In this document: in pieces, positions 1 through 25,363 of the stretch
Layout: each line of letters begins with the position of its first letter
Numbering within the stretch: the first letter of the stretch is position 1
NCBI GenBank assembly: GCA_963665665.1
Contig: OY762428.1
Span: forward strand, 3,648,001-3,712,000
DNA from: Candidatus Kapaibacterium sp.
GTDB lineage: Bacteria; Bacteroidota; Ignavibacteria; Kapaibacteriales; UBA2268
DNA: 64,000 nt
Direction of reading: 5' to 3'
The notes under the pieces: model-generated
What the model was told of the DNA's origin: nothing
What the model saw: only the letters and a program-made list of their open reading frames with translations
Database searches by the model: none
Program-made: the position numbers and the translations under genes

Positions 1-3000
1 AATGTAGATCTTTGGATTGATAATCCAAATGTGACAGTAACAGGGCAGAGCGGAGACCTGGAAATTCAGGGAGGATTAAGGCTTAGTAATGGTACTGTTA
101 ATGTAGGCCTTGCATCTGAAACTGCAGGAGGGCTGATATATTCCAATGGAACAGGTACTCCTTCACTAACTGTTGAGAACGGTTATCTGAATATCAACTC
201 TGAGTTAGCTAAATCAGCTGTGGCTTCGACTATCGATTTTAACCAGTCCGGCGGTGAAATAAATATTGGTGTTCGTGGATACCTGAATACCACTCATGGT
301 ATGTTTGATATCAGTTCGGTCGGATCGGAATTTATCTGGACCGGCGGTATTATTGAGTTAAACAGGACTAACCGCAGCGTTACTTTTACAGACGGTGATT
401 ATATTGTTGGTGCTTCAAGCGGAACCGTAACAGGTGGTACATTGAGGATTGATGCACAGGAATCCGGAAACAGGGTATACGAAATTAACACTACCCAGCC
501 TGTCAATGAAATTTTTATGACCGGAACAAATGACCCTGTCGCACAGATAATTAATACCGACCTTACAATTCTTGATGACCTGACTATTGATGGTTCAGGT
601 GCTGGAAGATTTGATGCAAATGATTATAATATTAATATCGGCGGTGACTGGTTTAATAATGCCAGTACATCATTTACTGCATTTGCTGCCGGCAGCGGAA
701 CAGTTACATTCGACGGCTCGGCTGATCAGCTAATAGGCGGGACAAGGTCAACAACTTACAATCATGTTACCGTAAATAAGTCTGCCGGTGATGTTATTCT
801 ATCCAATACCGACAGGGAAACTTTTATTGAAGGAACTTTGAAACTTGATCCCGGTAGCAGCGGCCTTGCTGTTATTGATTTGAACCAACGCGATCTGATA
901 ATGGGAGAAAGTGCTTCTTATGTTTCGAATTCAGGCACAAGTGTATTTAACTTTGATACTACAAAATATATTAAAAATTCTGAAAGTGGCGGAAATTATA
1001 ATGGGCGTCTGATAAAACAAACAACTTCAGGAATAACTGCTCGAACAGAAATGATGTTTCCCGTTGGTACAGATACTGTTTATTCACCTGCTGAGATTGT
1101 TTACCTTGCAGGGCAGGCAACTTTCGGAGCTGATGCTTATACTGCTTGTAAAGTGATTCCGATTGAGCATCCCCGGGTTGAGGAACCTGATATTTCCTTG
1201 ATGAGATACTGGCAGATGGCCACGAATGATATTACGCTTGATTCAGATCTTGACGGTGATGTAGATGTAATTTTTCATTATGTAGGTACTGATGTTGCAG
1301 GTAACGAAGGTGAATACAGGGTATTGTTCTTCTCGCCAAGTTATCCTGATCCGCTTGGATTCTGGACTGTGGATCCGGGCGGTATAGGTAATGATATTGT
1401 TGACTTTAATAACAGGATGTTTTATTCTCTTGCCGTTAAAAAGGTAGATGGTGACTGGCTTTGTGGCGAGGAAGATGCTGCCCAGGCTACATATTTTAGT
1501 CGTCAGAACGGTGATTACAATGATCCTGATACATGGTCAAAAATTACTTTTGGCGGAGCTGCTTCTTCAACTGCCCCGAATAAAGCATCGGACAGGGTTT
1601 TGATTGCTGATAATGATACGGTTACTGTTACTGCTAATCCTGCAGAAGTAGATGTTTGTGCCGTGATGGAAGACGGTACATTAAAAATTGCCGGTGATTA
1701 TGTCTTTACGGGAGATACACTAAGGGTAGATGCTAACGGAAGCCTGATAATCGGAAACTCTGATGGTGTTTATCTTTCACCGACTGCACAGGGTTGTGTG
1801 CAGACTGATTTCAGGATATTTAATTCGAATGTTATTTATACATTTATAGATGCTCCTGTGACAAAGTCCGGAACCGGTAATGCTCTGCCAACCCAGTTGC
1901 GTTCCATTGTTGTGGATAAATCTTCCGGCGATACACTTTTGCTTGAGAAACAGTTTGCCATTACCGATTCACTTGTGTTGATAGACGGAGCACTGGATGT
2001 TGGTTCATATTCCATCAACGGCAACAGTGCCGGAAGAACATTTTCAATGTATGACGGTGAACTAATCATAAGGAATCAGTATCCTACAAACTATCTGGAT
2101 AATACTTTTACAGCCGGAAGAATTACATTTGACGGTACGGGTAATGCTACAATTCCCAGTTCCGGCTCAACTCCGGGTGTTGATCAGTATTATGACCTGA
2201 AAATAAGCGGCCAGAGGGATTCAACAGTTATTACCTTCCAGTCTGCCGGGCAGATAAATATTATTAATGATTTTGATATTTCCACGATTGTATTTACCGG
2301 CGGCTTGTCTGAAAGATTTCAGACTGACGGATCGACAGTGAACTTTGCCAAATCAGGAGGAGTACAGGATATACAATGTCGTCCTGCATCGCCACCGGAT
2401 TCTATAGTAAACCTTGAATATTTTAATTTACTGATTACAGGCACCGGAACAAAGCAATTATACACAGCAGCCGGAACTCCGACATTTGTGGTTAGAAATG
2501 ACCTGACATTATCCAGTTCTACATTTTCTTCGAATGGCTATAATCTTGAAGTAAACGGTGACTGGGTTAATACCGGATCTTTATTCGATCCCGGAACTGA
2601 CGGAGTAATAATGCGTTCACCGGTATTCAGCCTGACAAATACAATTTCAAGCAGAGATACTTCGGAAAATCCATTTTATAATTTATTGATTGGCGGCGAA
2701 GGAATTGTAGAGCCGAACGATGACCTGTATGTTATGAATGATTTTGCGATAGAAGCAAATTCTAATTTCTCGCTTTCGACTACTACTTTCACACTTGAAG
2801 GAGACTGGACGAATTACGGCGGATCATTCAGTTCCGCTTCTTTTTCGACAGTTCATTTTAATGGCAGCTCTACTCAGAATATGACGAAATCTGATGCCGG
2901 AAATGAAGAATTCTGGGATGTATTTATTTCTAATCCGAATCATGTTGATGCTACAGGTATTGGCACAAGCAGTGATAACGGGTTTGTAATCAATAATTAT

Positions 3001-6000
3001 ATCGAGCTGGATGGTGGTAATCTTATTACACGTGGCCGCCATGCAACATCCTATGGCGCTATTGGCCGGCCGGGCGCAAATCCGGGACACATAGACGGTG
3101 AATTAAGAAAAATCATGGATACTGCTACGACCTCGGAAATATTTGAAGTTGGCTATGGCAGTCAGTACACTCCTGCCAGGCTCTCTTTTAACGGCAGTGG
3201 CGGATCTTCAGGTCTTGTTGGTGTTGCCAGTGATACTATAACTACAGCTACTTCACCAATCAGCTGGGATAATCTGAATCCTGATAATATTCTTCCTGCC
3301 GGCAGTGAGATGAGCCTTGACAAACATGTTGCAAGGCAATGGACTTTATCGAATCCGGGGGGAATATTCGCAATTGGTTCTAACAGAAATTATGATTTCA
3401 CAGGCTATTTTATTAATCCCGGCGACTTTCGTAATGGAGCTGATCCGGATTATTTTGAACTAAGGCTTTGGAACGGTTCTGTATGGACAGCTCCCGACAG
3501 GTTTGCTAACCCGCTTACCGGAACAAGGAACAGTGATAACTCTACATACAGAATGCTTGAAGAATTCGGTACTATCATTCTCGGAGAACCCGACAAATAC
3601 TCCTTCTACAGCATATATGATGCAAATTGGGGAGTAAATACCAGTTGGTCAACACAGTCATACGGTGGCCCTGCAAGTGATATTCCTCCCAATACTGATT
3701 GTAAGGTATATATTGGTGATTCTAAAGTAATTACTATGGAGGCCAATAAAACCAATAATGGTATAGTTACTATTGATACAAGTGGTACATTACTTTGTGA
3801 AACTTATGTGCTTAGCGGCGGCGTTGGAAGCGAATTTATTCTCGGCAGGGAAGGGGCACTTGGTATTGGAAGCGCCGATGGTATCAGGGCAAGCGGTGCT
3901 TTTGGTAATATACAGACTGATTCCAGAGATTTCAATGAAAATACTCACAACCGTGGCCACTTTATTTATACTTCCGGTTTGAACCAGACTCAGGCCGATG
4001 AGGCTCTTCCTATAACCATAGCTACTCTTCGGGTTAATAAAACTTCGAATACAGTAACCAATAACAGGTCTGCTATAATTATTACAGACAGTCTTCATCT
4101 TGAGAATGGTACTTATGAAGCCGGAGCCAATATAAGCCTGCTTGGTAATTTTTACAGGGAAGATGGTTCAACTTTCGATCCGTCAACAAATTCGTTTACC
4201 GTTGAAGGAACAAGCGGCCAATTTTTCACAAACAGTTCCACATCCCTGACGATAGATTTTTATAATCTTCAGATTGAAAAAGAAGCTGGCGAAGGCATCC
4301 TGACATTAAATGATAATACCCCGATAAAAATTGAAAATAATCTTTTATTTGCTCCTGCGAATGAATCAATAATTGACGGTCAGGGGCATTCCTGGAACTA
4401 TGTTGAATTGCCTAATGGCGCTACATTGACCAGGGCTGGTAGTGGCCATATATTTGGTGAATTAAGAAAATATATTCCTGCGGGAAATACCAGTGATATT
4501 GATTTTGAAGTTGGCGATACAACTTTCTTTACTCCGCTTCGATTTAATTTCGACGATACCGGAGGTACTGCCGGTCTGATCGGCGTTAATAGTATTCAGG
4601 GGGCGCATCCGAACATGACTGATACCGACTGCCCGATTGATCCTGCAAGATATATACCAAGATATTGGAGAACCACCCGGCCAGGCGGTTCCGGCTTTGC
4701 CGTTGGAACAAGATCGTACACTCTCAGGTCAACATTCATTGATCCGGACGATCTGGGTACAATTGACCATCCGACATGTACTGAAACCGGATACTGGCGT
4801 GGAACAACAGAAAGCTGGCAGGCTTTGAGGCCGAATACAACAAACGGCAATTTTGCTTATGCTTGTAGCGATACAAGGTTTATACTTGGTGATATCGATT
4901 ATGATGGCAGCATGACGACAAACCTGGCAAACGATATTCCTTCTGATTCTACGCTGGGTTCAACATATACATTTGCAGACGGTTCCCTTCTTTTAGCAGA
5001 TTACGTAGTCGGAAACCAGAATTCAGGCAGAACTACAATATTTTATAGCCGCCAGGACGGAGACTGGACAGATCCCAATACCTGGTCGGAAGATAGTTAT
5101 ATCGGCACTGCATCCAGCAGGTATCCCATAACACAGTATGATGTTGCTTATATCGGAAATAACCGCTACGTTGATCTTGATGCAAATCTTGGTACCAATT
5201 ATCTTTATTCAGGTGTATCTAATGATTATTTTGGTCCGGCTATAAATGTTGAAAATACCGGGGAACTTTATCTTCACAATCATGTAATACGCGGAGTAGG
5301 TTTTACAGCAAAGAAGGGATCGAAAGTTGTTATTGGCTCAAGGGACGGCATTACTCTGAGTAATACTCGCGGCAATATAATGTCTCTTACAAGGACTTTC
5401 GAAGACAGTATTAATGTTGTGTATACTGCCGAGGGTTATACCCCAAGGTGCAAGTATGGCGATCAAACTGGCAGAAACACTCAGTATTATGATGTCAGGG
5501 ACTGGTATGCCGATAGTAGATATACTGAAAGAGTTACAATGCAGGATGCCAGTTCGGATACAATAATGGATAACCAGAGCGGTTCTGATTTCAGGACGAG
5601 AGGGTATTTCTATTTTGCTGATATTACCGCAACAGTTACTTCGGGTAGCCAATATAGATTTTTCCTTGAGCCGGATGACAATGGATCAAGAAGGTGGAAA
5701 ATTTATGTTGACTGGAACTATGATGGTGATTTTTCTGATTCGAATGAAGAATGGTATGATTCCTACGGTAGCGGGACAAGAAATACGGGATTGCTTACTG
5801 TACCGGCAAGTACTAATCCGGGAGTAACCCGGATTAGAGTTATGAACCGTTATGGATCCAGTGACTATAACTGGTACAGCAGGAGTTTAACTGGAGAAGT
5901 TGAAGATTATACTCTTGTTATTATTAATAACACTCCTGCCATTACACAGGTAACAGGAGACAATTTACCTGATGACTTGTGGTCATTCGAAGCCCGTGCT

Positions 6001-9000
6001 GTAAGAACAGCCGGTGGTACAATCGAACTTGGAAATGATCTGCGTATAAGAGATTCTTTGTTATTAACCAGTGGCGTCTTTACAGTGAACGGCCATGATA
6101 TTTCACTTCAGGGTGATTTTATAAATGACTCAACAAATAATTTTATTCATGACAGCCAGACTATAACTTTCTATGGTTCTGATAATGACACAATCAGGGG
6201 AACAAATCCTACCGATTTCTATAATATAGTAATTGATAAAGACAGTGCTGATGTTGTTCTTACTCATTCAACACCTGATACTGATTTTTACACTACAATT
6301 GAAAATAATCTTACTTTTGATTCTGATACTGATTTTTATCTTTCAAATAGTTCTACTATTACTTTATTGTCATCATCGAATTTGAATGCCGGTTCCGGCA
6401 GTTTTGGCAGATACAGGAAATTTGAAGTAAGCGGCGATACTGATGCAGGAATCATTGAAAAACAATTTACAACTGCCGCAGGAGCCAAGGCTTTTGTATT
6501 CCCGGTAGGAATAGATACATTATATAATCCTGCCGACCTGACTTTAACGGGTTCTTATAGCGGAACTCCCACAATAAACCTTCAGCTCCATTACGGACTT
6601 CACCCGGCAAGGCTTGATGACAACATGCTTTTGAAATACTGGACCGTTGACCTTGAAGATATCAGCTCTATCACAGCTAATGATTTTAAGTTTTACTGGG
6701 AAGATTTGGATACTAATGGTGTTAAGGATGATTATATTCCTGCACTTCATTATTCAGGTGGATGGGAAATAAATCTTGGTATCGGCCCCAAAGCACTACC
6801 TTCGCCAATTGAAATAACAAACAGTCCGCTATTTGAAGGAGACTGGACTGCCGGCGATGCTAACGGTTTCTTTAATGGCCGACCCTTCTATTCCATAAAT
6901 ACAGGCGACTGGGATGTTCCTTCAAACTGGTCAAATATTAGTCATGTCGGCCCCCCTTCTTCATATTATCCCAATCAGCTCTATGATCATGATTCTGTTT
7001 ATGTTGACGGTTATACTATTACTTTCAATGTTGATAGTTCTCTTGTTGACCTTGTTGATGTAGGTGGTACATTTGGCACAAATGGTGAACTTACTTTCGG
7101 TAGCAGCCCAACGGAGAAAAAACTTACGTCAAGTTCTACATTTACTGTATATGAAGATGGCATATTGAATGGCACTACCGGTAGTAACAGAATAGATACT
7201 CTTGTGCTTCACGGAGATTTTTATAATTATGCGCAGTCTGCTTCCTCGGGTATAGTTGAACTTTATTCCGGCGCTAATGACTATACAGTATTGAAATTTG
7301 ATTCTCCTGATTCTGTGTCCGCTTCTGGCAATACATACATTGGTGGTGAAGGAGTATGGGGAGACATCGGTTCATATATTCTTGATAAGAATGGCGGGCT
7401 TGCCGATACTCTTATTGTCAATTCGGGTACGTTTGCCGATGCTACAGTTGCTTCGCCAGGTGACCTTGTTTACTACCCGGAACAGGGTGTTTTAAAGCTT
7501 AATGTAAATAATACATTGTCTGTAAGTAACGGAAATAACCCCGTACAAATGTCTCCTTTCACCGGTTTTGATGTTGCGGCAGGTGTAGTATCTTCATCAT
7601 CAACCCTGACAACCGATGTTAACACAACTATTCATGTTGACGGTGGTGATTTCCTTGTTGGTGATGCTGCCGGAGAATCCCTAATCTATAAAACCGGGAC
7701 ACATTTTGAACTTATCGACGGGACGCTTGATATTGCCGGCGCTTTCAAGAAATTTAATACCAATTCCCTTATAGATTTTTCCATGACATCAGTTGGTGCG
7801 GTCCGGGTTCTTAACCAGGGAGTATTGAGTTCTTCCGAGATTGGATTTGATATAACAAACGCATCATCATCATTTTCTATGGATGGCGGAAGGATAATTA
7901 TTGCCAATGGTACTGTTGGCGCTAATGCCGACTTTGAAGTTAATGCCCAGAACGGCACTGGTATGCTCGGTGGAGAAATTCAATCCGGCGACGGCACAAC
8001 TCCCGGCGCAGCGATAATAAAAATTGCAGGATCAATGCCCGTTTGGGACCTTCACGCCGTTGGAAATGCAAGTACAGATGTTGTAACCCAGATCACTGAA
8101 GAGACTTTTTATATTAATAATGACCTGATAATTGATAATATTAATACCTTTGAAACAAGAGGTAATACAATCGACCTGTCCGGAGACCTGTTAAATTCCG
8201 GTGTTTTCGATGCAATCAATTCTGCCGATGCAACAAGCCCCAGAATGCTTATACTTAGCGGTTCAAGCAATACTCAGACCCTATATAATGCTCAGGCAGG
8301 CGGCCTTGAGCTTTATAACCTCAGGGTAGATAAATTGGGGGGAGACGTTCTTCTTGGCCAGGCTCCCGGTGATAATTCTAATCTGCTAATAAGGAATATT
8401 CTTGAATTTACGAATGATAACTATTCTGTAATTGATTCAAGAACAAACGGGCTTTACGTGGAAATGGAACCCGATGCGGGTTCGGTTCCCCAGATAATCA
8501 GAAACGGACTGGGGCATATTTCCGGCAGGCTGTACAGGTATGTTGATACTGATGAACAAAGTGTTGCCTTTGCTGTTGGATCATCAACGGTAACCGAGTA
8601 CAGGCCTGTAGAATTTGAAACTGTTGGAAGCGGTGGAACAGCAGGTTTGGTGGGTGTTATAATGCATGATTTTGATCACCCGCGCCTTGGCGATGCTCTT
8701 GCCAAAACTGATAATAATATTCAGGTGTACTGGAATATTTCCGAAGGAACAGGCTTTGATCTTGATACAAGAACCTTTGATTTAAAAACTTATTTCCTGA
8801 ACCCGGAAGATATTCGCGGCGCTCAGTCTGATACACTGTTCTTCGGACATTTCCTTTACGAACCGCCATGCCCTGACCCTCCGGCAGTATGTCCGGGTGG
8901 CGGAACCTGGCATGAATTAATTTCAATTGATAAGGGGGCAAACTATGTGCGTTCCACTATCAATGACACATTCGGCGATGTAATGATAGCTGAAGCTGAC

Positions 9001-11070
9001 GGTGTAACATTTTACAGCATTAATGATGGTAACTGGAATAATGCAGCCAATTGGTCAACAGTCGGGTATGAAAGTGCTTCCAATCCTTACGGACGTTACC
9101 CCGGAGAGGCCGGTAATACAAGTGATAAGGCAAGGGTTGGTAACGATAAAAAGATTACAGTTCCTGTAGGTATACTTCCGAATGTAAGGACGTTGATTGT
9201 AGAAATGTATAACTCACAACCCGGAAAATTATATATTGAAGGTAATGTCGGGGCTGTAAGGGGAATATCCTTTGCTCTCAGGGACAGTTGTACTCTTGGC
9301 ATTATGCATCTGAACGGTATTGCTCAGAACGGGGTTACAGGTGGCGCCATTCTTATGGATACTCGTGAATATGGTGTTAGTAACTATGTATTTAATTCTA
9401 CTTTTGGTTCCCAGAACTCCGGTAAAGGCCTGCCCGATTCTGTTGCGGCAATAATTGTTGATAATCCGTCAGCGCCGACTAATAATGTTTTTGTTACAGC
9501 TTTCAATGCAGGTTATGACATTCGTGTAAGGGATTCGCTTTCCGTTTTGCAGGGAACTCTTAACTGTGGTAACAGGGACTTCCATCTTTATGGTGATTTC
9601 TCAATATTTGGAAACGGACTTTTTGAGCCTTTGGCTTCGAGTTTCGAGTTCAGCGGCCCCAACTCACATACAATCACTCTTGGGAATAACCAGGGCCTTT
9701 CTTTCTGGAATTGCAATGTCCGCTCGGATGCTGATGTTATTGTTGATCCTGTAACCGGATATGACACAACAACAGCACATATATATATGGAAAACAATCT
9801 GACATTCTCAGGTGATAATATATTTTACGTTCGCGATCAGTGGCGCAAGATTATTATGAGCAACACAGCAAATGTTGTTCAGTCAGTTGCCGATCAGGGC
9901 TATGTTGACGGTACTCTTCTGAAATATCTTGGCCCTAATGCTCTCACAGAATTTTTTGAGATAGGTAACGGAACGGCTTATACGCCTGTTCTTCTTACAC
10001 TCGATAATACCAGCGGAAATGGCACTGCCGGGCAGGTAGAAGCAATAAATATTGCACCCCTGCCTAATGACCCGTCCAATTACCCGGCTGTCGGGCACAG
10101 GATGGATACCGGGCGTTCCATTCCGCGCTACTGGCGCGTGATGCCGACTCCCGGTGGTTCATTTGCTATTGGTGGCCGTACAGCAAATGCACGCCTTCAC
10201 TTCCCCAATTCCGAACTTGGAATTATAAGTGTTCCGAATGCCGTTATCAGGCGGAGGTCGATTCCCACCGAGACGCCTGAATGGCATCAGCGCTCATATA
10301 CAACGCAGATAAACTGGGATGTTGTCAGCCCGACTTCCTGGGCGGAACTTCTTCCGGCAACACCGCCATGGGAAGGTATCGGCGAATTTTATATCGGCGA
10401 GAAATTTGACAGGACATTCTATAGTATAGCGGATGGTGTCTGGGCTGATAATAATACCTGGTCATTGGAATCTCATGACGGTATAGCGCCTCCTCCTGGT
10501 GTATATCCCAACCATGATGAAAACGAACAGGCTGATAACGTTGAAATAGGACTTACAAGCGCTTCCTATACTCACGTGGTTACTCTGGATGTTGACTCTC
10601 CTGATATTGATACGCTCAGGGTGCTTGGCAATTCTGAATTATATATGGATGCCAATACGATTAATTGTTACGATTGCCTGGCACTTAGCAAAGGACTTTT
10701 CCGATTCAGGGATAACGCCACGCTCAGCATTGGTGGTACGAACAATCCTAATGAACTTGTTTTGAAAAATTTCACTGCTTACGACTGGACGGATGCTGAG
10801 GGCAGCAACACAACAATAAAATTTACCGGTACAAATACAATTACTCAAAACCCTTTCGGTAATGCCACGGATATAGGGTATTTCGGCCATGTGGAAGTGG
10901 CCGAGCCGGGCGAGAAAGTTATTAACCAGGCTTTGCGTATTCAGGGGAACCTGCTGATAACAACCGGAGCAACTTTGAATGTTCAAAATATTGATGCATT
11001 GAAGGTAAATCGAAACGTTATCAACTCTGCCAGTTTGAATAATAACGGGGTGATCGAAATAGGCGAATAG
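1..11070 (+). CDS. Giant repetitive surface/adhesin-like beta-solenoid protein, 5' truncated by the window, with an inserted GEVED domain
   Basis: Frame is open from base 1 (NVDLWIDNPN precedes the GTG at 31). Six FYS-x2-(D/N/T)G-x-W-x5-WS-like motifs at about 1489, 3601, 5038, 6883, 9007 and 10414. Recurring GHIxGxL...F(E/P)VG...Y(T/S)P and RYW motifs. GEVED signature (YVDWNYDGDFSD...GEVEDY) at about 5700-5910. Ends in NNNGVIEIGE with no T9SS CTD. Confidence 0.8.
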   Translation, partial: NVDLWIDNPNVTVTGQSGDLEIQGGLRLSNGTVNVGLASETAGGLIYSNGTGTPSLTVENGYLNINSELAKSAVASTIDFNQSGGEINIGVRGYLNTTHGMFDISSVGSEFIWTGGIIELNRTNRSVTFTDGDYIVGASSGTVTGGTLRIDAQESGNRVYEINTTQPVNEIFMTGTNDPVAQIINTDLTILDDLTIDGSGAGRFDANDYNINIGGDWFNNASTSFTAFAAGSGTVTFDGSADQLIGGTRSTTYNHVTVNKSAGDVILSNTDRETFIEGTLKLDPGSSGLAVIDLNQRDLIMGESASYVSNSGTSVFNFDTTKYIKNSESGGNYNGRLIKQTTSGITARTEMMFPVGTDTVYSPAEIVYLAGQATFGADAYTACKVIPIEHPRVEEPDISLMRYWQMATNDITLDSDLDGDVDVIFHYVGTDVAGNEGEYRVLFFSPSYPDPLGFWTVDPGGIGNDIVDFNNRMFYSLAVKKVDGDWLCGEEDAAQATYFSRQNGDYNDPDTWSKITFGGAASSTAPNKASDRVLIADNDTVTVTANPAEVDVCAVMEDGTLKIAGDYVFTGDTLRVDANGSLIIGNSDGVYLSPTAQGCVQTDFRIFNSNVIYTFIDAPVTKSGTGNALPTQLRSIVVDKSSGDTLLLEKQFAITDSLVLIDGALDVGSYSINGNSAGRTFSMYDGELIIRNQYPTNYLDNTFTAGRITFDGTGNATIPSSGSTPGVDQYYDLKISGQRDSTVITFQSAGQINIINDFDISTIVFTGGLSERFQTDGSTVNFAKSGGVQDIQCRPASPPDSIVNLEYFNLLITGTGTKQLYTAAGTPTFVVRNDLTLSSSTFSSNGYNLEVNGDWVNTGSLFDPGTDGVIMRSPVFSLTNTISSRDTSENPFYNLLIGGEGIVEPNDDLYVMNDFAIEANSNFSLSTTTFTLEGDWTNYGGSFSSASFSTVHFNGSSTQNMTKSDAGNEEFWDVFISNPNHVDATGIGTSSDNGFVINNYIELDGGNLITRGRHATSYGAIGRPGANPGHIDGELRKIMDTATTSEIFEVGYGSQYTPARLSFNGSGGSSGLVGVASDTITTATSPISWDNLNPDNILPAGSEMSLDKHVARQWTLSNPGGIFAIGSNRNYDFTGYFINPGDFRNGADPDYFELRLWNGSVWTAPDRFANPLTGTRNSDNSTYRMLEEFGTIILGEPDKYSFYSIYDANWGVNTSWSTQSYGGPASDIPPNTDCKVYIGDSKVITMEANKTNNGIVTIDTSGTLLCETYVLSGGVGSEFILGREGALGIGSADGIRASGAFGNIQTDSRDFNENTHNRGHFIYTSGLNQTQADEALPITIATLRVNKTSNTVTNNRSAIIITDSLHLENGTYEAGANISLLGNFYREDGSTFDPSTNSFTVEGTSGQFFTNSSTSLTIDFYNLQIEKEAGEGILTLNDNTPIKIENNLLFAPANESIIDGQGHSWNYVELPNGATLTRAGSGHIFGELRKYIPAGNTSDIDFEVGDTTFFTPLRFNFDDTGGTAGLIGVNSIQGAHPNMTDTDCPIDPARYIPRYWRTTRPGGSGFAVGTRSYTLRSTFIDPDDLGTIDHPTCTETGYWRGTTESWQALRPNTTNGNFAYACSDTRFILGDIDYDGSMTTNLANDIPSDSTLGSTYTFADGSLLLADYVVGNQNSGRTTIFYSRQDGDWTDPNTWSEDSYIGTASSRYPITQYDVAYIGNNRYVDLDANLGTNYLYSGVSNDYFGPAINVENTGELYLHNHVIRGVGFTAKKGSKVVIGSRDGITLSNTRGNIMSLTRTFEDSINVVYTAEGYTPRCKYGDQTGRNTQYYDVRDWYADSRYTERVTMQDASSDTIMDNQSGSDFRTRGYFYFADITATVTSGSQYRFFLEPDDNGSRRWKIYVDWNYDGDFSDSNEEWYDSYGSGTRNTGLLTVPASTNPGVTRIRVMNRYGSSDYNWYSRSLTGEVEDYTLVIINNTPAITQVTGDNLPDDLWSFEARAVRTAGGTIELGNDLRIRDSLLLTSGVFTVNGHDISLQGDFINDSTNNFIHDSQTITFYGSDNDTIRGTNPTDFYNIVIDKDSADVVLTHSTPDTDFYTTIENNLTFDSDTDFYLSNSSTITLLSSSNLNAGSGSFGRYRKFEVSGDTDAGIIEKQFTTAAGAKAFVFPVGIDTLYNPADLTLTGSYSGTPTINLQLHYGLHPARLDDNMLLKYWTVDLEDISSITANDFKFYWEDLDTNGVKDDYIPALHYSGGWEINLGIGPKALPSPIEITNSPLFEGDWTAGDANGFFNGRPFYSINTGDWDVPSNWSNISHVGPPSSYYPNQLYDHDSVYVDGYTITFNVDSSLVDLVDVGGTFGTNGELTFGSSPTEKKLTSSSTFTVYEDGILNGTTGSNRIDTLVLHGDFYNYAQSASSGIVELYSGANDYTVLKFDSPDSVSASGNTYIGGEGVWGDIGSYILDKNGGLADTLIVNSGTFADATVASPGDLVYYPEQGVLKLNVNNTLSVSNGNNPVQMSPFTGFDVAAGVVSSSSTLTTDVNTTIHVDGGDFLVGDAAGESLIYKTGTHFELIDGTLDIAGAFKKFNTNSLIDFSMTSVGAVRVLNQGVLSSSEIGFDITNASSSFSMDGGRIIIANGTVGANADFEVNAQNGTGMLGGEIQSGDGTTPGAAIIKIAGSMPVWDLHAVGNASTDVVTQITEETFYINNDLIIDNINTFETRGNTIDLSGDLLNSGVFDAINSADATSPRMLILSGSSNTQTLYNAQAGGLELYNLRVDKLGGDVLLGQAPGDNSNLLIRNILEFTNDNYSVIDSRTNGLYVEMEPDAGSVPQIIRNGLGHISGRLYRYVDTDEQSVAFAVGSSTVTEYRPVEFETVGSGGTAGLVGVIMHDFDHPRLGDALAKTDNNIQVYWNISEGTGFDLDTRTFDLKTYFLNPEDIRGAQSDTLFFGHFLYEPPCPDPPAVCPGGGTWHELISIDKGANYVRSTINDTFGDVMIAEADGVTFYSINDGNWNNAANWSTVGYESASNPYGRYPGEAGNTSDKARVGNDKKITVPVGILPNVRTLIVEMYNSQPGKLYIEGNVGAVRGISFALRDSCTLGIMHLNGIAQNGVTGGAILMDTREYGVSNYVFNSTFGSQNSGKGLPDSVAAIIVDNPSAPTNNVFVTAFNAGYDIRVRDSLSVLQGTLNCGNRDFHLYGDFSIFGNGLFEPLASSFEFSGPNSHTITLGNNQGLSFWNCNVRSDADVIVDPVTGYDTTTAHIYMENNLTFSGDNIFYVRDQWRKIIMSNTANVVQSVADQGYVDGTLLKYLGPNALTEFFEIGNGTAYTPVLLTLDNTSGNGTAGQVEAINIAPLPNDPSNYPAVGHRMDTGRSIPRYWRVMPTPGGSFAIGGRTANARLHFPNSELGIISVPNAVIRRRSIPTETPEWHQRSYTTQINWDVVSPTSWAELLPATPPWEGIGEFYIGEKFDRTFYSIADGVWADNNTWSLESHDGIAPPPGVYPNHDENEQADNVEIGLTSASYTHVVTLDVDSPDIDTLRVLGNSELYMDANTINCYDCLALSKGLFRFRDNATLSIGGTNNPNELVLKNFTAYDWTDAEGSNTTIKFTGTNTITQNPFGNATDIGYFGHVEVAEPGEKVINQALRIQGNLLITTGATLNVQNIDALKVNRNVINSASLNNNGVIEIGE

Positions 11071-11340
11071 CCTAACTTTATAGTATTAGTAGGAATATGA
11101 AAAAGAATTAATTGATAATTAGGTAGTATTACTGAAAAAGAATATAATAATATTGTCGTCTATTAATGTGAAGGAGTAGAAAATTTTTGATAAATTAAAA
11201 AGTTTTAATAAATTTAAGTAGTTATACTTATTGATGCTCAGGTTGCAATTGTGTAACTTGCAGGGCAAACTGAAAGAAGCTATTGAAAAAATAAGTATTT
11301 ATAATAAATAAATAAAATTACTCATCTACGGAGGTTTATA

Positions 11341-13938
11341 ATGAAAAAACGGTATTTTTACAATTCTATGTTGTCCGCACTGGCAATGCTCATATTAGTT
11401 GGCATGAGCAGCGAGGCTTTCGGGCAGACATTTATTAACCAGGGATCTGGTCAGGTTACTAACAGCGGATGTTTTAAGTTCAACACCGCCAGTGGTGAAC
11501 TGCAGAACAATGTCGGGACTGGCGATGATACCCAGACGATAATCAATAACAGCAGCGGTACAATTACTTTCATGGGGCAGGTGGTTACACCAGTGTTCAC
11601 TGGAACCAACCCAATTGGTACGGATAACAACCTTGATCGTATTCAAGGTTCTGTTCGCTATATAAATGATGATGCCGGTGGAAATGTTTATCTTTATGGT
11701 TATGGTGGCGCGGCCGATGCCACATACTACACAAATTTGACTCTTGATGGCCAATCAGCCAAATGGATTCCTGATAATGTGTACGTTGGTGGTGCTTATG
11801 AAAACAACTATCTTACTTCAGGAAGTCGTTCTTATACTGGAACTTTCTACTATGATGGTTCAATTGCTCAGACAATTGCCCCTGAAAATTCTAATTCAGG
11901 TAATTTAAACAGATATAATAATATGGATTTGTCCGGTGGCGGTACAAAAACTATTGCTTATGATGGAACAAATCTTCAGGGTGAAGTATATGTGATTAAT
12001 GAAGTTAATCAGGATGCCACATCCGCATTAAATGTATATGATGACTTCTATGTTGGTCATGCAAGTGGTACCGGCGGTACTTTTGCAGGAAATGTAACAG
12101 TTGGACAGGGTGGCCAGGCTGGTAATATTGACATGGGATTTGGTGACTATGGATTTACCGGTACTAATGTAACAATTGCAAATGGTACCTTTGAACTTGT
12201 TGGAACAGGTAGTTCCTCCTTCAGCGCTGCTGTAGCAATTAACAGCGGTTCATTTACTGTTACTAATACAACCTCCGGCGATCCTTATGCGCTATTTGCC
12301 AGCACAGTTAATGTAGCTGACGGTGGTACGCTTGGTACACAGGATGGAGCAAATGGTGATATCGCTATTGGCACAGCAGGAAGTTTAACTTTAGCTAATG
12401 CTGCCGGTGCTGTTTTAAATCTTGGTACAGGTACTGATATGATAGTTACAGGTAGCTTTACTAACGGTTTGGCTGCCCGTACCAATATGACTTTCGGTGA
12501 CGGATCCAACATGATCTATAATGCTGCCGGAGCTCAGACTGTTGTAAGTACTGCTTCTACAAATCCTTATTCAAACTTGTTTGTTGAAGGTGGGGGTACC
12601 AAAACTCTGGATGCAAATACTAATCCGATGGCTTATGTTGATGATAACTTTGGTATTGGTACATCAACTTATGCCGGTAATGTTGCATTTACTTCAAATC
12701 AGTCCGGTACTTTCACATTTGATGATCTTACTGACTTTACATATAATGCACTTGTAATGAATACGGGAACTGCAACATACCAGGGAACTTCTGAAGTTGA
12801 AGGTAACTTCCGCCGTGGTTCTATAACCGGTAAATTAATGGCTGATGACCAGTTATATACATATAACAATACTGAAACACAGTTGGCATTTGCAAATGCA
12901 CCGGCATTAAATGATTATATGCAGCTTCATGTTGAAGGTGGGCAGTATCCGTCAACAACATATATTGATGCTCCTGATTTAGTCAATGATCCTAACGAAG
13001 ACGATGTCAATAGGCTTTGGGTAACTCATACTGGTTCAAGTGATGGTTCAGTAGAAATTAATACACTCCGCCTTGCATTCCTTGCTTCCGAAGCAACAGA
13101 TGTTGACAGAACAGTAATGCGCGCCCTTGAGGGTACTAATGTTTCTGACGGTAATGCCAATCGTGAGGAAAAACTTAACATGCATTATGCTGCCGGCCAA
13201 ACTAATGGTACAAGTGGCTCTTGGGAATATTTTCAGTTGACAACAACCGGTGATGCTACGCCTTCTCCTTTAGCAATGGTGGGAACAGGTGCATCTGCTG
13301 CTGCCTTGCAGCCAAGATATAGCTTCCAGAATCTTGGTCAGGGTTCAGCTATAGCTCTTACAGATATGGAAAACTATCTAATCACAATTGCAAACGGTCG
13401 TTGGTCTTCAGACGATACATGGGATGAAGGTCGTCCACCGATGTCAACAGAACATGCAATCGTCCGTCACCTCGTATTTACAGGTATGCAGGGTGCTAAC
13501 ATTCTCGGTTCTACCGGTGTGACGACGTCTGAGGCTGAGGTCAATGGTGTTACCACTGTTGGTGATGTTGTTTACCTTGCCAAGAGCGTTGAGATCACGA
13601 ACACTTCTTATTCTGGTGCCAATCCTAATAACGTAGCACTCGTGTTCAACAATATTGATACAGATGCTGATGCTGGTGCGGTTAACCCGGCAAATGCAGT
13701 CTTCGCATTTGGTCAGGGTACACAGACGAATCCTGGTATGGTTAATAATAACGATGATCCCGGAACTCTTTGGGGTAATAATATTGCTAACTTAACATCT
13801 TATAATGGATTACAGGGTGTTTATACTATGGAATCAGAGTCTCCTGGTTCAAGGACAAATGCCGTCAGAGGTTACCAGATTACTAATAATGGTCGCTTCG
13901 TAATCGGTGCAAATTCTTGTGCTGAGGTTGGCGAGTAA
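11341..13938 (+). CDS. Secreted Gly/Thr/Asn-rich beta-solenoid protein, related to the giant protein's modules (candidate major filament subunit)
   Basis: GGAGG RBS. Sec signal ending AFG|Q. YxNLxxxGxxxK rungs and a NGRWSSDDTW motif. Ends in NSCAEVGE. Only two Cys (C44, C860). Confidence 0.75.
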   Translation: MKKRYFYNSMLSALAMLILVGMSSEAFGQTFINQGSGQVTNSGCFKFNTASGELQNNVGTGDDTQTIINNSSGTITFMGQVVTPVFTGTNPIGTDNNLDRIQGSVRYINDDAGGNVYLYGYGGAADATYYTNLTLDGQSAKWIPDNVYVGGAYENNYLTSGSRSYTGTFYYDGSIAQTIAPENSNSGNLNRYNNMDLSGGGTKTIAYDGTNLQGEVYVINEVNQDATSALNVYDDFYVGHASGTGGTFAGNVTVGQGGQAGNIDMGFGDYGFTGTNVTIANGTFELVGTGSSSFSAAVAINSGSFTVTNTTSGDPYALFASTVNVADGGTLGTQDGANGDIAIGTAGSLTLANAAGAVLNLGTGTDMIVTGSFTNGLAARTNMTFGDGSNMIYNAAGAQTVVSTASTNPYSNLFVEGGGTKTLDANTNPMAYVDDNFGIGTSTYAGNVAFTSNQSGTFTFDDLTDFTYNALVMNTGTATYQGTSEVEGNFRRGSITGKLMADDQLYTYNNTETQLAFANAPALNDYMQLHVEGGQYPSTTYIDAPDLVNDPNEDDVNRLWVTHTGSSDGSVEINTLRLAFLASEATDVDRTVMRALEGTNVSDGNANREEKLNMHYAAGQTNGTSGSWEYFQLTTTGDATPSPLAMVGTGASAAALQPRYSFQNLGQGSAIALTDMENYLITIANGRWSSDDTWDEGRPPMSTEHAIVRHLVFTGMQGANILGSTGVTTSEAEVNGVTTVGDVVYLAKSVEITNTSYSGANPNNVALVFNNIDTDADAGAVNPANAVFAFGQGTQTNPGMVNNNDDPGTLWGNNIANLTSYNGLQGVYTMESESPGSRTNAVRGYQITNNGRFVIGANSCAEVGE

Positions 13939-13954
13939 ATCCAATTTGTTTTAT

Positions 13955-14023
13955 TCAGGAGGAGGTTCTCCTCCTCCTGATATTATTAAATTTTAAAAAA
14001 GGAAAACGAGTTGTTTTCCTTTT
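13955..14023 (+). terminator. Two hairpins after the 865-aa gene (terminator/attenuator or stabiliser)
   Basis: TCAGGAGGAGG-ttct-CCTCCTCCTGA (13955-13980) and AAAAGGAAAAC-gagtt-GTTTTCCTTTT (13997-14023). Confidence 0.65.
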
Positions 14024-14093
14024 ACTCGGAAAAGTAAACATGTAGGTTAATAAACATTAATGATAATATCATTTAGAGTAAATATAAAATAAC

Positions 14094-16169
14094 ATGAAAT
14101 ACACGAGAAACATACTACTAATTAGTCTTATTCTAATCATTTCCGCATCTGCTGTTGATAGTCAGGTATTGCTTAGAAATGATAAGAAAAATGCTAAGAT
14201 AGTTAATAACGGTACTTTCCGTGTATTGAAAACAGGTTCGATCGTAGGTATGCCCGATACAATTGGTGGAAGGGTAGAATTCATTAGTGATGAAAGAACA
14301 ATGACTCAGGCAGTTCCGAATTCGACTTACAATCAGTTACTAATAACAGGTTCAACGAAAAAATATATTGATTCAGCATGGAATCATAAAACCTTCAACC
14401 CGCTTCGCACCAGGGATTCTCTGATAGTTGATGGCGAAACGGAATTTAATCTTGATTCTGTTGAAGTACATGCACAGGGGCCAATTGCAAATGAAGCCAG
14501 AATCAAGGGACGGAATGACCTTAGAGCAATAAATGAAGTTAATTCTCAGACGATTCAGGGAAAGGGGCTTATCAGAAGGCTTAATATCGATAATCCCCAG
14601 GGCGTTGATGTAGTTAAAGGTGGTGGCTTTAAAATAACCGGGAAATTAGAACTTACCCGCGGGGAGCTTCGCAATGACGCTGATAATAATTTCCATATCG
14701 AGGATTCGGTAAGGATTATCCGCCATACGGGCGCTTCGCTTGCTAATGATCCTGAATTTGACGGCAGGGATATTGCCGTGGAATATGTTGGTGGCGGTTC
14801 TCTTAGTACAGGTCCGGAATTGCCAAATGATTCAACGTTACTTGCCAGCCTGTATAACAAGACATCAGGCGGTGTTTACCTGACTAAATCCGTAACTGTT
14901 AATGATTCGCTGCTTCTTGTTTCCGACATTACTACAAGCCCGAACAGTACTACTTTTAATGATGATATTGTACTTACATATACAAATGACAAATCTCCGA
15001 TATTTACTAATCATGAAGCGGAGATCATCGGTGCTTTCCGAAGAACTAAGATCAGTTTCGACAGCACAAGGGTAATCTTCAATAATCCATATACCTGGGC
15101 TCTCTTTCTAAAGCCGGAGGATGCGAATGGTTCATCTGATATTACATTTCGCGTAAAACCAAAAACATTCCCTCCGTTTTATAAAGGCGAACTTAAGGTG
15201 CGCAGGAGTTTTGAAATCCGTGCCATGGATAGTAACTATGCCAGCATTGAAGAAGGCATAAACATGAAGGTTGGTTACGGCTGGCGTGTTTCAAAAGATA
15301 CGGCTAAGGACGAAAATCACGGGATGCCCTTGCCTGAATTACTATTCCAGCGATGGACAGGCTCGGATTGGTTTGATTACGATAATTCTAAAAAACCGAT
15401 TCTTGATACTCTTCCGGAATGGGCTTATGCCTCGGCCGATATTTCACAATATGGTGATTTTGCAATCGGTTTGCCGGGTGGAATTCAGTTGACACTTGAT
15501 TCCAGAGTTTTGCTTGAAGGGCCTTATCGATATGGATCAATGGCACAGGACCTGAGATTAAAAAATCTTGTTCCTAAAACTCCACCGGATATCTATCCAT
15601 ATAATCTGGATCCTAACCGAAATCTGATTTTCGTGAATCAAATTCCTGATTCCGTTGTTGATTGGATAGTTATGGAATTCAGGCCTTCCTTTACATCAAC
15701 CGACAGGTTCTATCGTACTGCTTTCCTTAGGTTTGACGGCCGGGTAGTTGACCTTGACGGTATATCCCCGGTACTGCTGTCTAAGGGCGGAATTGACTCG
15801 GGTGAGTACTATGTGGCTATTCACCACAGGAATCACCTTGCAGTAATAACTGAAAAGAAAGTTGGCATATATCCTGAAACTGTTCAGAGGGTACTTGATT
15901 TCACCAATCCAAATATACTTATGGGGCGTTTTAGTGCTCTTAAGCCGATCGATGTTACAGAAGAAGGCCGGGCGATATTCGGTATGATAGGCGGTGATAT
16001 AAATGGTGACGGTATTGTTGATGAAAATGATATGATAGGTGTTTGGAGCGATCGGGATTATGAAGGCCAATATCTTAATACCGATACCCGGATGAACGGT
16101 ATTATTCATACCCGGGATTTCAACGTGAGCTGGAACAACCGGGGCCGGGTCAGCAATCTTCCTAAATAA
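14094..16169 (+). CDS. Secreted protein: N-terminal beta-solenoid related to the 865-aa protein, C-terminal VLLEGPY/HRNH domain with a dockerin-like double Ca-loop
   Basis: Signal peptide ending VDS|Q. IVNNGTFRV...IGGRVEF...YNQLLITGSTKK matches the 865-aa N-terminus. C-terminus has RVLLEGPY...HHRNHL...GDINGDGIVDEND...DTRMNGIIHTRD. Confidence 0.7.
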   Translation: MKYTRNILLISLILIISASAVDSQVLLRNDKKNAKIVNNGTFRVLKTGSIVGMPDTIGGRVEFISDERTMTQAVPNSTYNQLLITGSTKKYIDSAWNHKTFNPLRTRDSLIVDGETEFNLDSVEVHAQGPIANEARIKGRNDLRAINEVNSQTIQGKGLIRRLNIDNPQGVDVVKGGGFKITGKLELTRGELRNDADNNFHIEDSVRIIRHTGASLANDPEFDGRDIAVEYVGGGSLSTGPELPNDSTLLASLYNKTSGGVYLTKSVTVNDSLLLVSDITTSPNSTTFNDDIVLTYTNDKSPIFTNHEAEIIGAFRRTKISFDSTRVIFNNPYTWALFLKPEDANGSSDITFRVKPKTFPPFYKGELKVRRSFEIRAMDSNYASIEEGINMKVGYGWRVSKDTAKDENHGMPLPELLFQRWTGSDWFDYDNSKKPILDTLPEWAYASADISQYGDFAIGLPGGIQLTLDSRVLLEGPYRYGSMAQDLRLKNLVPKTPPDIYPYNLDPNRNLIFVNQIPDSVVDWIVMEFRPSFTSTDRFYRTAFLRFDGRVVDLDGISPVLLSKGGIDSGEYYVAIHHRNHLAVITEKKVGIYPETVQRVLDFTNPNILMGRFSALKPIDVTEEGRAIFGMIGGDINGDGIVDENDMIGVWSDRDYEGQYLNTDTRMNGIIHTRDFNVSWNNRGRVSNLPK

Positions 16170-16213
16170 ACTCTGATTGAATCCCGGTAAAGGATAAACT
16201 TGAAAAAATAAAT

Positions 16214-17548
16214 ATGAAAAAATATTCATACATACTGGTTTTTATTTTTCTCCTCTGTTCTTCAATAGTGTATTCACAGAACAGGGAGATTCTTGGTATT
16301 GTACAGATCGATGAAGTTAACCTGGTGCAGCCTGATACACTGGAATTTGATATTCTTCTGAAAAGAACATCAGACCGATGGGACAGATGGGCTAACGGCA
16401 CATTCCAATTGGAATTTACTGATACAAACTTCAAGCTGGGCCCTTCTGATATGCAGATTGAATACATTTTTAACAGTTCCGATCTGCCGACTCCGCCACT
16501 ATCAGGTGGTGTACTTCCTGTTGATAGTTATATTATAACACCAAGGATTTTAACTGACAGAATCAGTATTACAATAGCCGGACCGGAACTGTATCCTGAT
16601 GCATCTTATGTTCCCATGGATGATAATGGAATAAAGATCGGCACATTCAGAATTTTTTCCAATTTGGGCCAGAAATTATCTGAGTCACTTGGATGGAAAA
16701 TGCCATCGGATTATTACCAGGCATGTGCATATAAACTGAAAAATGATACTATCAGGCCGATAAATATTCCCTGGGCATTTGAAAATGATAATATCGAAAT
16801 GGATAACCTGCGCTCAACCGGCGTTACTTATGAAAGGATTGATACTATTCCACCGCAGATGGTTCTGAAGTATTTTCATGGTGAATATGTCGGCCTTCGA
16901 AAAGTAAGGTTGTGGTGGGAAACTGAAAGAGAGGCTTACAACAAGGGTTTTGTTCTTACCCGTGGAATTAAGCCGCCTTTCGGAGATGACGATGATACTC
17001 AGTTCAATACTCTGATAGCCAGGTTTGACGATGGAATACAGTGGCACAGGGATTCACTTACCGGGCTTGGAACCAAACGCTATGGCCGTGAATATATTTA
17101 TCCTTTCGATACCGTACCATACAGGGGTGAGGAATATTGCTACCTGCTTCAGTATATTGATTTCAATGATTCACTCAGGCATATTCCTTATACTGACGAG
17201 TATGGTGTATATCATGAAAAAGCTATCAGGTGCATACCTATTCCCAATGCTGTTATTTCTGCTGCAGAAGCCCAGCCAAATCCTTTCCGTGAACAAACCA
17301 CCGTGAAATATCTTTTGGATGATAATGTTTTACTGACTGTATCGGTATTCGACCTTCTTGGCAAGGAAGTCAAGAGGCTTATTGATAAGCAGGAGGTTGA
17401 ACTTGGTTGGCATGAGGTTATTTTTAATGCTCCAGTCGAGGAACTAGCCTCGCAGGGCCTTTACCAGATTGTTTTTATTGCTAATCCTATTGACGATCCG
17501 AACGTGGAAATTTCAAAAGCTATCGTTAAAGTGCAGTTGATAAGATAA
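16214..17548 (+). CDS. T9SS type A cargo protein with a cohesin-like N-terminal domain
   Basis: Signal peptide. TLEFDILLK...GTFQLEF beta-sandwich. LWWETERE...GFVL Ig-like domain. CTD QPNPFREQTTVKYLL...VFDLLGKEVKRL...KVQLIR. Confidence 0.7.
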   Translation: MKKYSYILVFIFLLCSSIVYSQNREILGIVQIDEVNLVQPDTLEFDILLKRTSDRWDRWANGTFQLEFTDTNFKLGPSDMQIEYIFNSSDLPTPPLSGGVLPVDSYIITPRILTDRISITIAGPELYPDASYVPMDDNGIKIGTFRIFSNLGQKLSESLGWKMPSDYYQACAYKLKNDTIRPINIPWAFENDNIEMDNLRSTGVTYERIDTIPPQMVLKYFHGEYVGLRKVRLWWETEREAYNKGFVLTRGIKPPFGDDDDTQFNTLIARFDDGIQWHRDSLTGLGTKRYGREYIYPFDTVPYRGEEYCYLLQYIDFNDSLRHIPYTDEYGVYHEKAIRCIPIPNAVISAAEAQPNPFREQTTVKYLLDDNVLLTVSVFDLLGKEVKRLIDKQEVELGWHEVIFNAPVEELASQGLYQIVFIANPIDDPNVEISKAIVKVQLIR

Positions 17549-21612: not shown

Positions 21613-21635
21613 TTATCTGACTCCTGAATTATATA

Positions 21636-24761: not shown

Positions 24762-25294
24762 TAGTTGCCCTCCGGTATAGTTTCTTGTTCCATGGCTTTA
24801 TAATAATTAATAATGTCTCCCACTTTTTCGGGTTTTACCCTTTGGTGAGTATCATCGTTTACCATGATAACCGGTGCCAGGCCGCAAGCGCCAAAGCAGC
24901 GCCCGACATCTAAGGAGAAAAGCCTGTCGGCTGTTGTCTGCCCAACATCAATATCAAGTTCTTTACTGAAGGCGTTCAATACTTCTTTACCACCACGAAC
25001 GTAGCATGCCGTACCAAGGCATATCCTGATAACATATTTGCCACGCGGGACGGTTGAAAAGAATGAATAGAAGCTTACCACACCGGCAACTTCACTGTAT
25101 GATTTATCAAGTTTGAAACTGATTTTTCTGAGGGCCGATTCCGGCAGGTAGCCGAACATATTCTGTGCTATCTGCAATACCGGGATCAAAGCGCCCTGCT
25201 TGTCCTTGTACTGTTCCAATACATCGTCAAGAATAGCGAGCTGTTCCTCTTCGGAAACTTCGCTTTGACAATTGCATGTTTGAATCTCTGACAT
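24761..25294 (-). CDS. hydC: HydC/NuoE-like 2Fe-2S subunit
   Basis: GVVSFYSFF, ICLGTACYVRGG, RCFGACGLAP. Likely start ATG at 25294 behind AAGGGA. Stop overlaps the hydB ATG (TAATG). Confidence 0.92.
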   Translation of the reverse strand: MSEIQTCNCQSEVSEEEQLAILDDVLEQYKDKQGALIPVLQIAQNMFGYLPESALRKISFKLDKSYSEVAGVVSFYSFFSTVPRGKYVIRICLGTACYVRGGKEVLNAFSKELDIDVGQTTADRLFSLDVGRCFGACGLAPVIMVNDDTHQRVKPEKVGDIINYYKAMEQETIPEGN

Positions 25295-25363
25295 ATTATT
25301 TCCCTTTATAAGAAAACCCAAAAATTTTTTTCCAGAACTATTCGTCGTTTGTAATCTTTTAAA

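Follow-up and report, generated by a model that had tools for sequence, protein, structure and literature searches.

A 64,000-bp stretch of the genome of Candidatus Kapaibacterium sp. (assembly GCA_963665665.1, contig OY762428.1, positions 3648001-3712000 on one 5.46-Mb contig), here called the window, was analysed for a cluster of genes encoding large beta-helix proteins that may join end to end into a surface fibre. The region holds five plus-strand open reading frames (ORFs), at 1-11070 (open at its 5′ end), 11341-13938, 14094-16169, 16214-17548 and 17610-19535. When the genome was read upstream, the operon order was a putative LuxR-type regulator, then A (1408 aa), B (3966 aa), C (865 aa), D (691 aa), E (444 aa) and F, a WD40 protein with a type IX secretion system (T9SS) C-terminal domain (CTD). 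The features of the window genes, with confidence given as the predicted local distance difference test (pLDDT) score, are as follows.

1..11070, plus strand: B, giant modular beta-helix protein, with 3689 of its 3966 aa inside the window; proposed distal end, bearing a donor tail only
5695-5916, plus strand: GEVED domain in B (PF20009, E 2.3e-13, by Pfam), residues 1899-1972 of the window protein
11005..11067, plus strand: B tail, last 21 residues (..NSASLNNNGVIEIGE), with the donor motif N.G.I.N.G.IEIG.$ read from the sequence
11341..13938, plus strand: C, 865 aa, proposed extender (shaft); signal peptide 1-28, acceptor head, beta-helix, middle domain, GRWS..TWDEG domain and donor tail
11425..11487, plus strand: C head, mature residues 29-49 (QTFINQGSGQVTNSGCFKFNT), including C44; low pLDDT in the monomer and interface in the complex model
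13873..13935, plus strand: C tail, residues 845-865, including C860; pLDDT 29 in the last block and interface in the complex model
14094..16169, plus strand: D, 691 aa, proposed terminator/adaptor; signal peptide 1-23 followed by an acceptor head, donor tail absent
15996..16145, plus strand: dockerin-like end of D, residues 635-684, with two DxNxDGxIxxxD-type loops (DINGDGIVDEND, DTRMNGIIHTRD) read from the sequence
16214..17548, plus strand: E, 444 aa, proposed surface anchor; 24-210 cohesin-like, 215-345 FN3-like, 346-444 T9SS-CTD-like
17610..19535, plus strand: F, 641 aa, a WD40 beta-propeller protein bearing a T9SS type A CTD (25.5 bits, by Pfam/NCBIfam)

The start codon of B was located 831 nt upstream of the window, giving a protein of 3966 aa with its own Sec signal peptide, in which Pfam finds no domain other than GEVED. 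The secreted protein A (1408 aa, genome 3642940-3647166, L001:6940-11166) contains internal near-identical repeats and ends 3 nt ahead of the B start codon; it is translationally coupled to B and may decorate it. Pfam and PHROGs gave no match for A, and the label "tail-fibre-like" given to it here is presumptive; an A-like protein of a related locus (L038) matches Phage_depo_C (E 9.9e-11). A 219-aa ORF preceding A was taken for a putative LuxR-type response regulator, suggesting that the cluster is regulated. A preliminary description, made from the letters of the window, had named B, C, D and E and had overlooked both A and the regulator, which lie upstream of the window.

The AlphaFold2 (AF2) monomer model of C (pLDDT 83.2, predicted template modelling (pTM) score 0.70) contains a right-handed beta-helix spanning about 39-481 and a beta-rich middle domain beyond it. 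Both ends of the model are of low confidence (pLDDT 43-56 at 21-70, except 74 at 51-60, and 29 at 861-865). By VIA-align, residues 39-481 matched the Vag8 passenger (7akv_G; Z 16.5, root-mean-square deviation (rmsd) 5.4, 366 aa aligned), tapirins (4wa0_A, Z 15.2; 6n2c_B, 15.0), pertactin (2iou_H, 14.9) and HMW1 (2odl_A, 13.7), at sequence identities of 8-14%. A Foldseek search of the PDB gave nothing at E<=0.001 for C, only weak matches to Ag43 and Hap, and Pfam, NCBIfam and PHROGs gave nothing for C or D of this genome.

Ends of the beta-helix proteins and their predicted docking

The giant B ends in NNNGVIEIGE and C in ANSCAEVGE, a likeness that the preliminary description had noticed; the common pattern is N.G.I.N.G.IE[IV]G.$. 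All strings cited in that description were recovered from the sequence. A direct homologue search gave 5 relatives of C, far fewer than a C-family profile search (HMMER) covering 1.84 billion representatives, which gave 541 at E<=1e-3 and 202 at E<=1e-30. The best 150 representatives plus the C of the window included 140 members of normal length, and 114 of them are closed by h-x-h-[GC]-x(1-3)$, typically in the form N.G.I.N.G.IE[IV]G[DEQN]$. Alike, too, are the ends of 23 giants encoded beside C genes in related loci, a list that was picked by regular expression from the endings and hence gives no rate. The tail domain of B aligned with an internal rung of C and not with the C tail domain (hhalign probability 90.7), and was therefore rejected as its orthologue, the terminal motif alone being in common. 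The shared ending is more telling because the two tail domains are otherwise not orthologous. Judged from these sequences, the terminal likeness is confirmed as real and far beyond chance.

A C/D-type head was not matched in B by the C profile (C.hmm), which gave only weak colinear matches elsewhere in the giant; the N-terminus of B, which had rightly been placed outside the window, is thus not of the C/D type. The idea that B is a simple concatemer of C units at the sequence level was dropped, because C.hmm matches the giant weakly and the hhalign match is to an internal rung.

The heads of C (VTNSGCFKF, IQGSVRY and YTNLTLDGQSAK) and D (IVNNGTFRV, IGGRVEF and YNQLLITGSTKK) had also been described as alike. 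BLASTP among the window's own proteins gave nothing significant (best E 0.098), so the likeness of the ends was undecidable from the window alone and was decided by family profiles. By hhalign the two families are homologous over C 14-642 and D 11-455 (probability 99.7, E 1.1e-25), indicating at the profile level that C and D are paralogues, with a homology far exceeding the head; to regard the head likeness as a mere general rung motif was therefore wrong. Their C-terminal parts differ, D having a specific region (LLEGPYR..HRNHLA) plus the dockerin-like end where C has the GRWS..TWDEG domain plus the tail instead. The distribution of ends is then head and tail on C and head only on D, as first described, and tail only on B. 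A 794-aa D-type protein (L021:17523-19904 of genome G033, and P0110) has a C-like N-terminus (C profile 13-588) and the C-terminal end of D; the G033 genome has no separate C, and its 794-aa protein adjoins a 3583-aa protein with an A-family-like end.

Docking of the C tail on the C head was predicted with ESMFold2 as a complex of a single pair, C 656-865 (the tail domain) with C 29-330 (the head part). The median ipSAE (interaction prediction score from aligned errors) was 0.87 (0.87, 0.89, 0.83), and the best of three controls gave 0.00; of 80 solved complexes 58 attained the ipSAE mark used, versus 2 of 110 mismatched pairs. Contacts agreed between runs to at least 93%, and the pLDDT of the partners was at least 87. 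The PDB contains no sequence relative of C (best E 0.13), so this pass was not due to a similar solved complex by sequence. As predicted, the interface joins residues 845-865 (plus 802, 805, 807, 810, 831, 839 and 843) with 29-49, 52 and 72-73, and the artificial cut ends of the fragments lie outside it. The residue pairs of lowest error, which include 853:39, 849:32, 855:41 and 861:45, run parallel; when the head was numbered as a continuation of the tail, their offset was 20-23 residues, equal to one solenoid rung. The prediction supports binding of the C tail to the C head.

The only cysteines of the window's C protein are one in the head (C44) and one in the tail (C860), adjoining the predicted 861:45 contact. 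Cysteines were counted in 133 representatives, the head being defined as the first 40 mature residues and the tail as the last 14. Both ends carry Cys in 13 of them (eight without any other Cys), and 12 of the 13 pairs are 20-24 residues apart when counted as a continuous chain, in registers of head 19-23/tail -2 or -3, 16/-6, 14-15/-8 and 9/-14. Shuffling of partners put a mean of 4.8 pairs in the 20-24 range, and none of 20,000 shuffles reached 12 (shared ancestry uncorrected). A motif-based count gave Cys at both ends in 7, in the head only in 1, in the tail only in 5 and at neither end in 120 (Fisher p 4.9e-8, likewise uncorrected for shared ancestry).

Matching cysteines were also seen across the proteins of a locus. 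In the eight loci where C bears a near-terminal tail Cys, a matching Cys is present in its head; D is Cys-free in six of these, and in the other two it has only one within the signal-peptide region, together with residue 647 in the case of L048. Giants with a tail Cys were found in six loci, at -2 in L052, L066, L104 and L069 and at -8 in L063 and L088, and in all six a Cys stands in the matching register of the cognate C head. Two of the three tail-Cys giants examined have a head of their own without Cys, indicating that the tail Cys of those two cannot pair in cis. In this genome there is no Cys in the B tail or the D head, so C44 and C860 can pair only between C molecules or within one. A disulfide (C44-C860 here) probably locks the joint in some lineages.

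Natural C-D fusions of 1443-1581 aa were found in six related loci (L053, L068, L083, L085, L089 and L097), and six fusions are also among the 150 listed C-family representatives (P0064, P0065, P0071, P0084, P0091 and P0114). In five of six fusions the C profile ends at 763-765 of its 766 positions and the D profile begins there at 24-40; in the sixth, L083, C ends at residue 762 and D profile position 28 falls at residue 764. The junction reads ..NGGQIDV/LDNLTSLGFFANSG.., in the pattern ..N.GLI.NGG.I[DE]V followed directly by L..L.S.G.I.NSG.., and only the last residues of C and the signal peptide of D are lost. In L085 and L089 no E gene follows the fusion.

Gene order in related loci and the putative anchor

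One genome per species was scanned, giving 107 relatives, and the best 80 loci (L030-L109) were compared; these are labelled Candidatus Kapabacteria/Kapaibacterium, Ignavibacteria, Chlorobiota or Bacteroidota, some bearing other automatic labels. C is followed by D in 70 loci, fused to it in 6, at a contig end in 3 and without D in 1, and E follows D in 69 of the 71 evaluable loci. Thus, conserved gene order and the conserved terminus, both put forward as checks in the preliminary description, were found in most relatives compared. C, D and E are each single-copy in this genome, and F is optional, a protein of similar size (judged by size alone) following E in 16 of 69 related loci. C was matched in 30 of the 40 relatives searched, which makes the cluster near-universal in one poorly studied order. 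In a phylum-wide sample of 201 genomes, 12 had a C-family match (E<=1e-10), all in the class of the window's genome, and full-length matches were confined to its own order.

Two types of locus were distinguished. In one, the giant B precedes C-D-E, often with F next, and an OmpA-family protein comes after these, with a CHASE-PAS histidine kinase behind it. The other is giant-less: besides C-D-E it has several A-like proteins and a protein of ~270 aa assigned to no known family. The A-like paralogues, 2-6 in giant-less loci, have the ending W[IV]E[IVL].R..N$, a faint echo of the hEhG of the donor motif; they may be alternative tips docking on the C head. The ~270-aa protein, which ends LG.MWR.GL and matches no Pfam family, follows E at L038:15439-16245 and in 17 other giant-less loci, where it occupies the place of the OmpA-family gene; it may be an outer-membrane barrel that bears on export. 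Orthologues of the OmpA-family protein and the CHASE-PAS histidine kinase are encoded in this genome at 3345546-3349515 (tblastn, 37% and 50% identity).

The AF2 model of E (pLDDT 91.1, pTM 0.78) was compared with solved structures by VIA-align. Residues 24-210 matched the cohesins 2vn5_A (Z 9.9, rmsd 3.5, 132 of 142 aa), 6kgc_A (9.8), 4uyp_A (9.8) and 1ohz_A (9.6); cohesins make up 12 of the 50 structural matches listed for E, and every match limited to 24-210 is a cohesin. In the model, the N-terminal domain of E has the cohesin jelly-roll fold. A profile of the E family gave no match among PDB sequences, and in the Atlas, as a lead only, Cohesin is found in 29-32% of the members of two neighbouring clusters of E.

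Residues 346-444 of E matched the CTDs of PorU (6za2_B; Z 9.6, rmsd 2.8, 91 aa), PorZ (5m11_A, 8.9) and mirolase (8qb1_A, 8.7), a likeness at the fold level only, as generic immunoglobulin (Ig)-like domains score equally high. Against TIGR04183, E scored 19.9 bits, under the cut-off of 23, and F 25.5 bits, over it. The claim that E bears a CTD was thus upheld by the fold and not by the profile. The genome encodes SprA (956.6 bits) and PorU (853.4 bits), both above their cut-offs.

The dockerin-like end of D is suggested by its two loops and by weak matches of the D profile to the dockerin chains 5lxv_B (E 0.19), 2vn6_B (1.1) and 2vn5_B (1.4). Pfam Dockerin_1 (PF00404) was found in 4 of 11 D-family members (best E 7.4e-4), and dockerin occurs in a minority of members among the Atlas neighbours of D, again a lead only.

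B, C, D and E each have a signal peptide that stops before Gln (among them ..AFG/Q, ..VDS/Q and ..SEG/Q), with no lipobox. Among the five window proteins, Pfam and NCBIfam (E<=0.1) identified no usher, chaperone or sortase, and no beta-barrel translocator, TPS (two-partner secretion) domain or TpsB partner; Pfam likewise identified no bactofilin domain (PF04519). The statement that the locus has no usher, sortase or lipoprotein pilin therefore held.

Other genes of the window were assigned by eye. On the minus strand at 19843-25321, ORFs of 589, 1041 and 186 aa resemble an [FeFe]-hydrogenase with NuoF/GltD-like and NuoE-like subunits. The segment 25988-30636 holds a 363-aa protein with an OmpA-like C-terminus (minus strand), an 866-aa multi-PAS histidine kinase and a 209-aa LuxR-type response regulator (both plus strand). 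A 1846-aa secreted protein is encoded at 31556-37096 (plus strand), and its end looks, by eye only, like a T9SS CTD.

Proposed assembly and its alternatives

On the basis of sequence statistics and predicted structures we propose, at a probability of about 0.6, that the cluster encodes a pilus-like multi-subunit fibre of beta-solenoid proteins joined end to end by docking and held by an anchor. The last rung of the donor tail (N.G.I.N.G.IE[IV]G.$, on B and C) would stack in parallel on the first rung of the acceptor head (Q..N...G.I.N.GTI.F, on C and D), and the joint would mimic an uninterrupted polypeptide. E would be exported by the T9SS and fixed by it to the cell surface, and its cohesin-like domain would bind the dockerin-like module of D. 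The D head would take the tail of C, and the C head the tail of another C or of B. Bearing only a tail, B must then be the distal end, where it would close the fibre for want of an acceptor; C, bearing both ends, can extend the fibre, and D, bearing only a head, terminates the chain. 

Several parts of this proposal go beyond the docking itself. We infer more than one C per fibre, a D-E bond, a surface location and an adhesive role; the last is suggested by the fold relatives of C, which are adhesins (tapirins, Vag8, pertactin). An open-ended polymer, in which last rung is stacked on first rung along many subunits with the giant as cap and the terminator plugged into the T9SS-anchored cohesin, we hold to be possible at somewhat less than even odds. 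In this wider reading the end motifs would act as a donor/acceptor code setting the order of assembly, split and fused in evolution (the giant as a covalent concatemer, and the C-D fusions), and the subunits without a CTD would cross the outer membrane by a route still to be described.

The roles assigned in the preliminary description gained computational support. Stacking of tail on head is backed by the score of the C-C complex, the matched Cys registers and the C-D fusions. C suits a shaft as the sole protein with both ends, its two cysteines being able to pair only C-to-C or within one C; B suits a tip, having a donor tail and no acceptor head; and D suits a terminator and tether, with a head, no tail and a dockerin-like end, next to an E protein with a cohesin fold and a CTD-like domain.

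Several results weigh against the proposed fibre. Twenty-six of the 140 C-family members do not satisfy the terminal expression, among them the C of the window itself (P0001, ..AEVGE), in which A occupies a required hydrophobic position. The Cys count over the fixed end segments is weak (13/41/7/72 for both, head, tail and neither; Fisher p 0.025, phylogeny uncorrected), because another subclade has a head Cys that is paired elsewhere, and many C members have no end Cys, so the disulfide is not general. The six C-D fusions may stem from one or two events. On the side of the anchor, E gave no match to Pfam cohesin (PF00963) at E<=0.1, and the window's own D gave none to a Pfam dockerin. The OmpA-like and CHASE-kinase genes, which adjoin the cluster elsewhere, lie ~300 kb from it in this genome. 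Finally, B, C and D carry neither a T9SS CTD (TIGR04183 / PF18962), as had been pointed out for B and C, nor another outer-membrane export signal recognised by Pfam or NCBIfam (E<=0.1); because of this, the surface location of the fibre is assumed.

Docking could be real and yet C a single connector, in a fixed 1:1:1 assembly of B, C and D (plus E) that has no shaft. One gene per part in a strict order would fit such an assembly, and the C-D fusions work with one C. It is nevertheless unlikely, as this genome and loci L048, L049 and L051 have matched cysteines on the ends of C only, with none on the giant tail or the D head, so that a strict trimer would leave both C cysteines unpaired; moreover, binding between the tail and the head of C is predicted. 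More doubtful is a contact of head and tail within one C chain, closed by an intramolecular disulfide, with B, C and D as separate adhesins that share end motifs. The co-varying cysteines do sit in one protein, and a complex prediction made from fragments cannot separate cis from trans. However, the AF2 monomer does not bring the ends of C together and leaves both unplaced, at low pLDDT; the length of the Vag8-like helix (366 residues aligned) implies that a cis contact would require the tail to run back along the helix; in the fusions the C tail runs on into the D head, so that it is not occupied by its own head; and the giants bear a tail, at times with Cys, without a matching head. Docking in trans is therefore likely.

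The least probable reading, to which we give only a small chance, is that the C-terminal motif is a sorting or export signal of an unknown outer-membrane pathway and that sticky ends of the beta-helices produce the predicted docking as a side effect. An export signal would explain why a motif at the extreme C-terminus is kept in two otherwise different tail domains, and B and C are without a known one. Against this, the fusions lose the free C-terminus yet keep the motif, the Cys registers fit the head and not a third party, and the controls with unrelated partners gave 0.00 with an interface clear of the cut ends. Export and docking roles of the motif are, in any case, compatible with each other.

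Comparison with known systems

In logic, the proposed fibre is closest to chaperone-usher, sortase and type V pili, which divide labour between tip, shaft and anchor: the tip has a donor only, the shaft has both ends and the terminator has an acceptor only. The pilins of those pili are Ig-like and are linked through donor-strand exchange or through isopeptide bonds, and their assembly depends on an usher, a sortase or the processing of lipoproteins. The present cluster differs from them in its solenoid joint, rung on rung, and has no lipobox and no named usher, chaperone or sortase.

In fold, the beta-helix of C 39-481 is common to autotransporter and TpsA adhesins (Vag8, pertactin, Ag43, HMW1) and tapirins, but C has no beta-barrel translocator or TPS domain by Pfam. 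Those adhesins are, to our knowledge, single chains, and we know of none that extends by end stacking of separate subunits. As far as we know, the well-studied bacterial surface filaments are held together by donor-strand exchange, sortase isopeptides, type IV pilin helices, amyloid stacking or flagellin coiled coils. A partial literature search found no surface fibre in which separate secreted solenoid subunits are joined by stacking rung on rung. If true, a surface fibre of stacked beta-helices would form a new class of filament, with an anchor built from known modules. It would bring a new joining principle, in which folded beta-helix subunits continue one another's solenoid, and a readable rule of assembly (tail only, tip; both ends, shaft; head only, base), and one would have to ask by what path giants without a CTD get out of a cell that has the T9SS. 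The 21-residue tail and 21-residue head are compact parts that could serve protein engineering.

For the anchor, a counterpart is given by the Cloacimonadota, in which a protein with a cohesin plus a C-terminal domain that is conserved was inferred to hold dockerin partners at the surface (PMC8542988). In that cellulosome-like system, enzymes are carried on a multi-cohesin scaffoldin, whereas here one cohesin-like domain would serve to hold a fibre at its base; neither the cohesin nor the dockerin module reaches Pfam significance in this copy.

For the joint, the closest principle is that of bactofilins, whose right-handed beta-helix cores associate end to end into filaments (PMC4372379; bioRxiv 10.1101/617639), described in the latter report as non-polar. 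Bactofilins are small, cytoplasmic and made of a single subunit, whereas the present subunits have Sec signal peptides and 700-4000 aa. Unlike bactofilins, the present cluster would combine polar docking with three subunit classes bearing different sets of ends and a cohesin/dockerin/CTD anchor.

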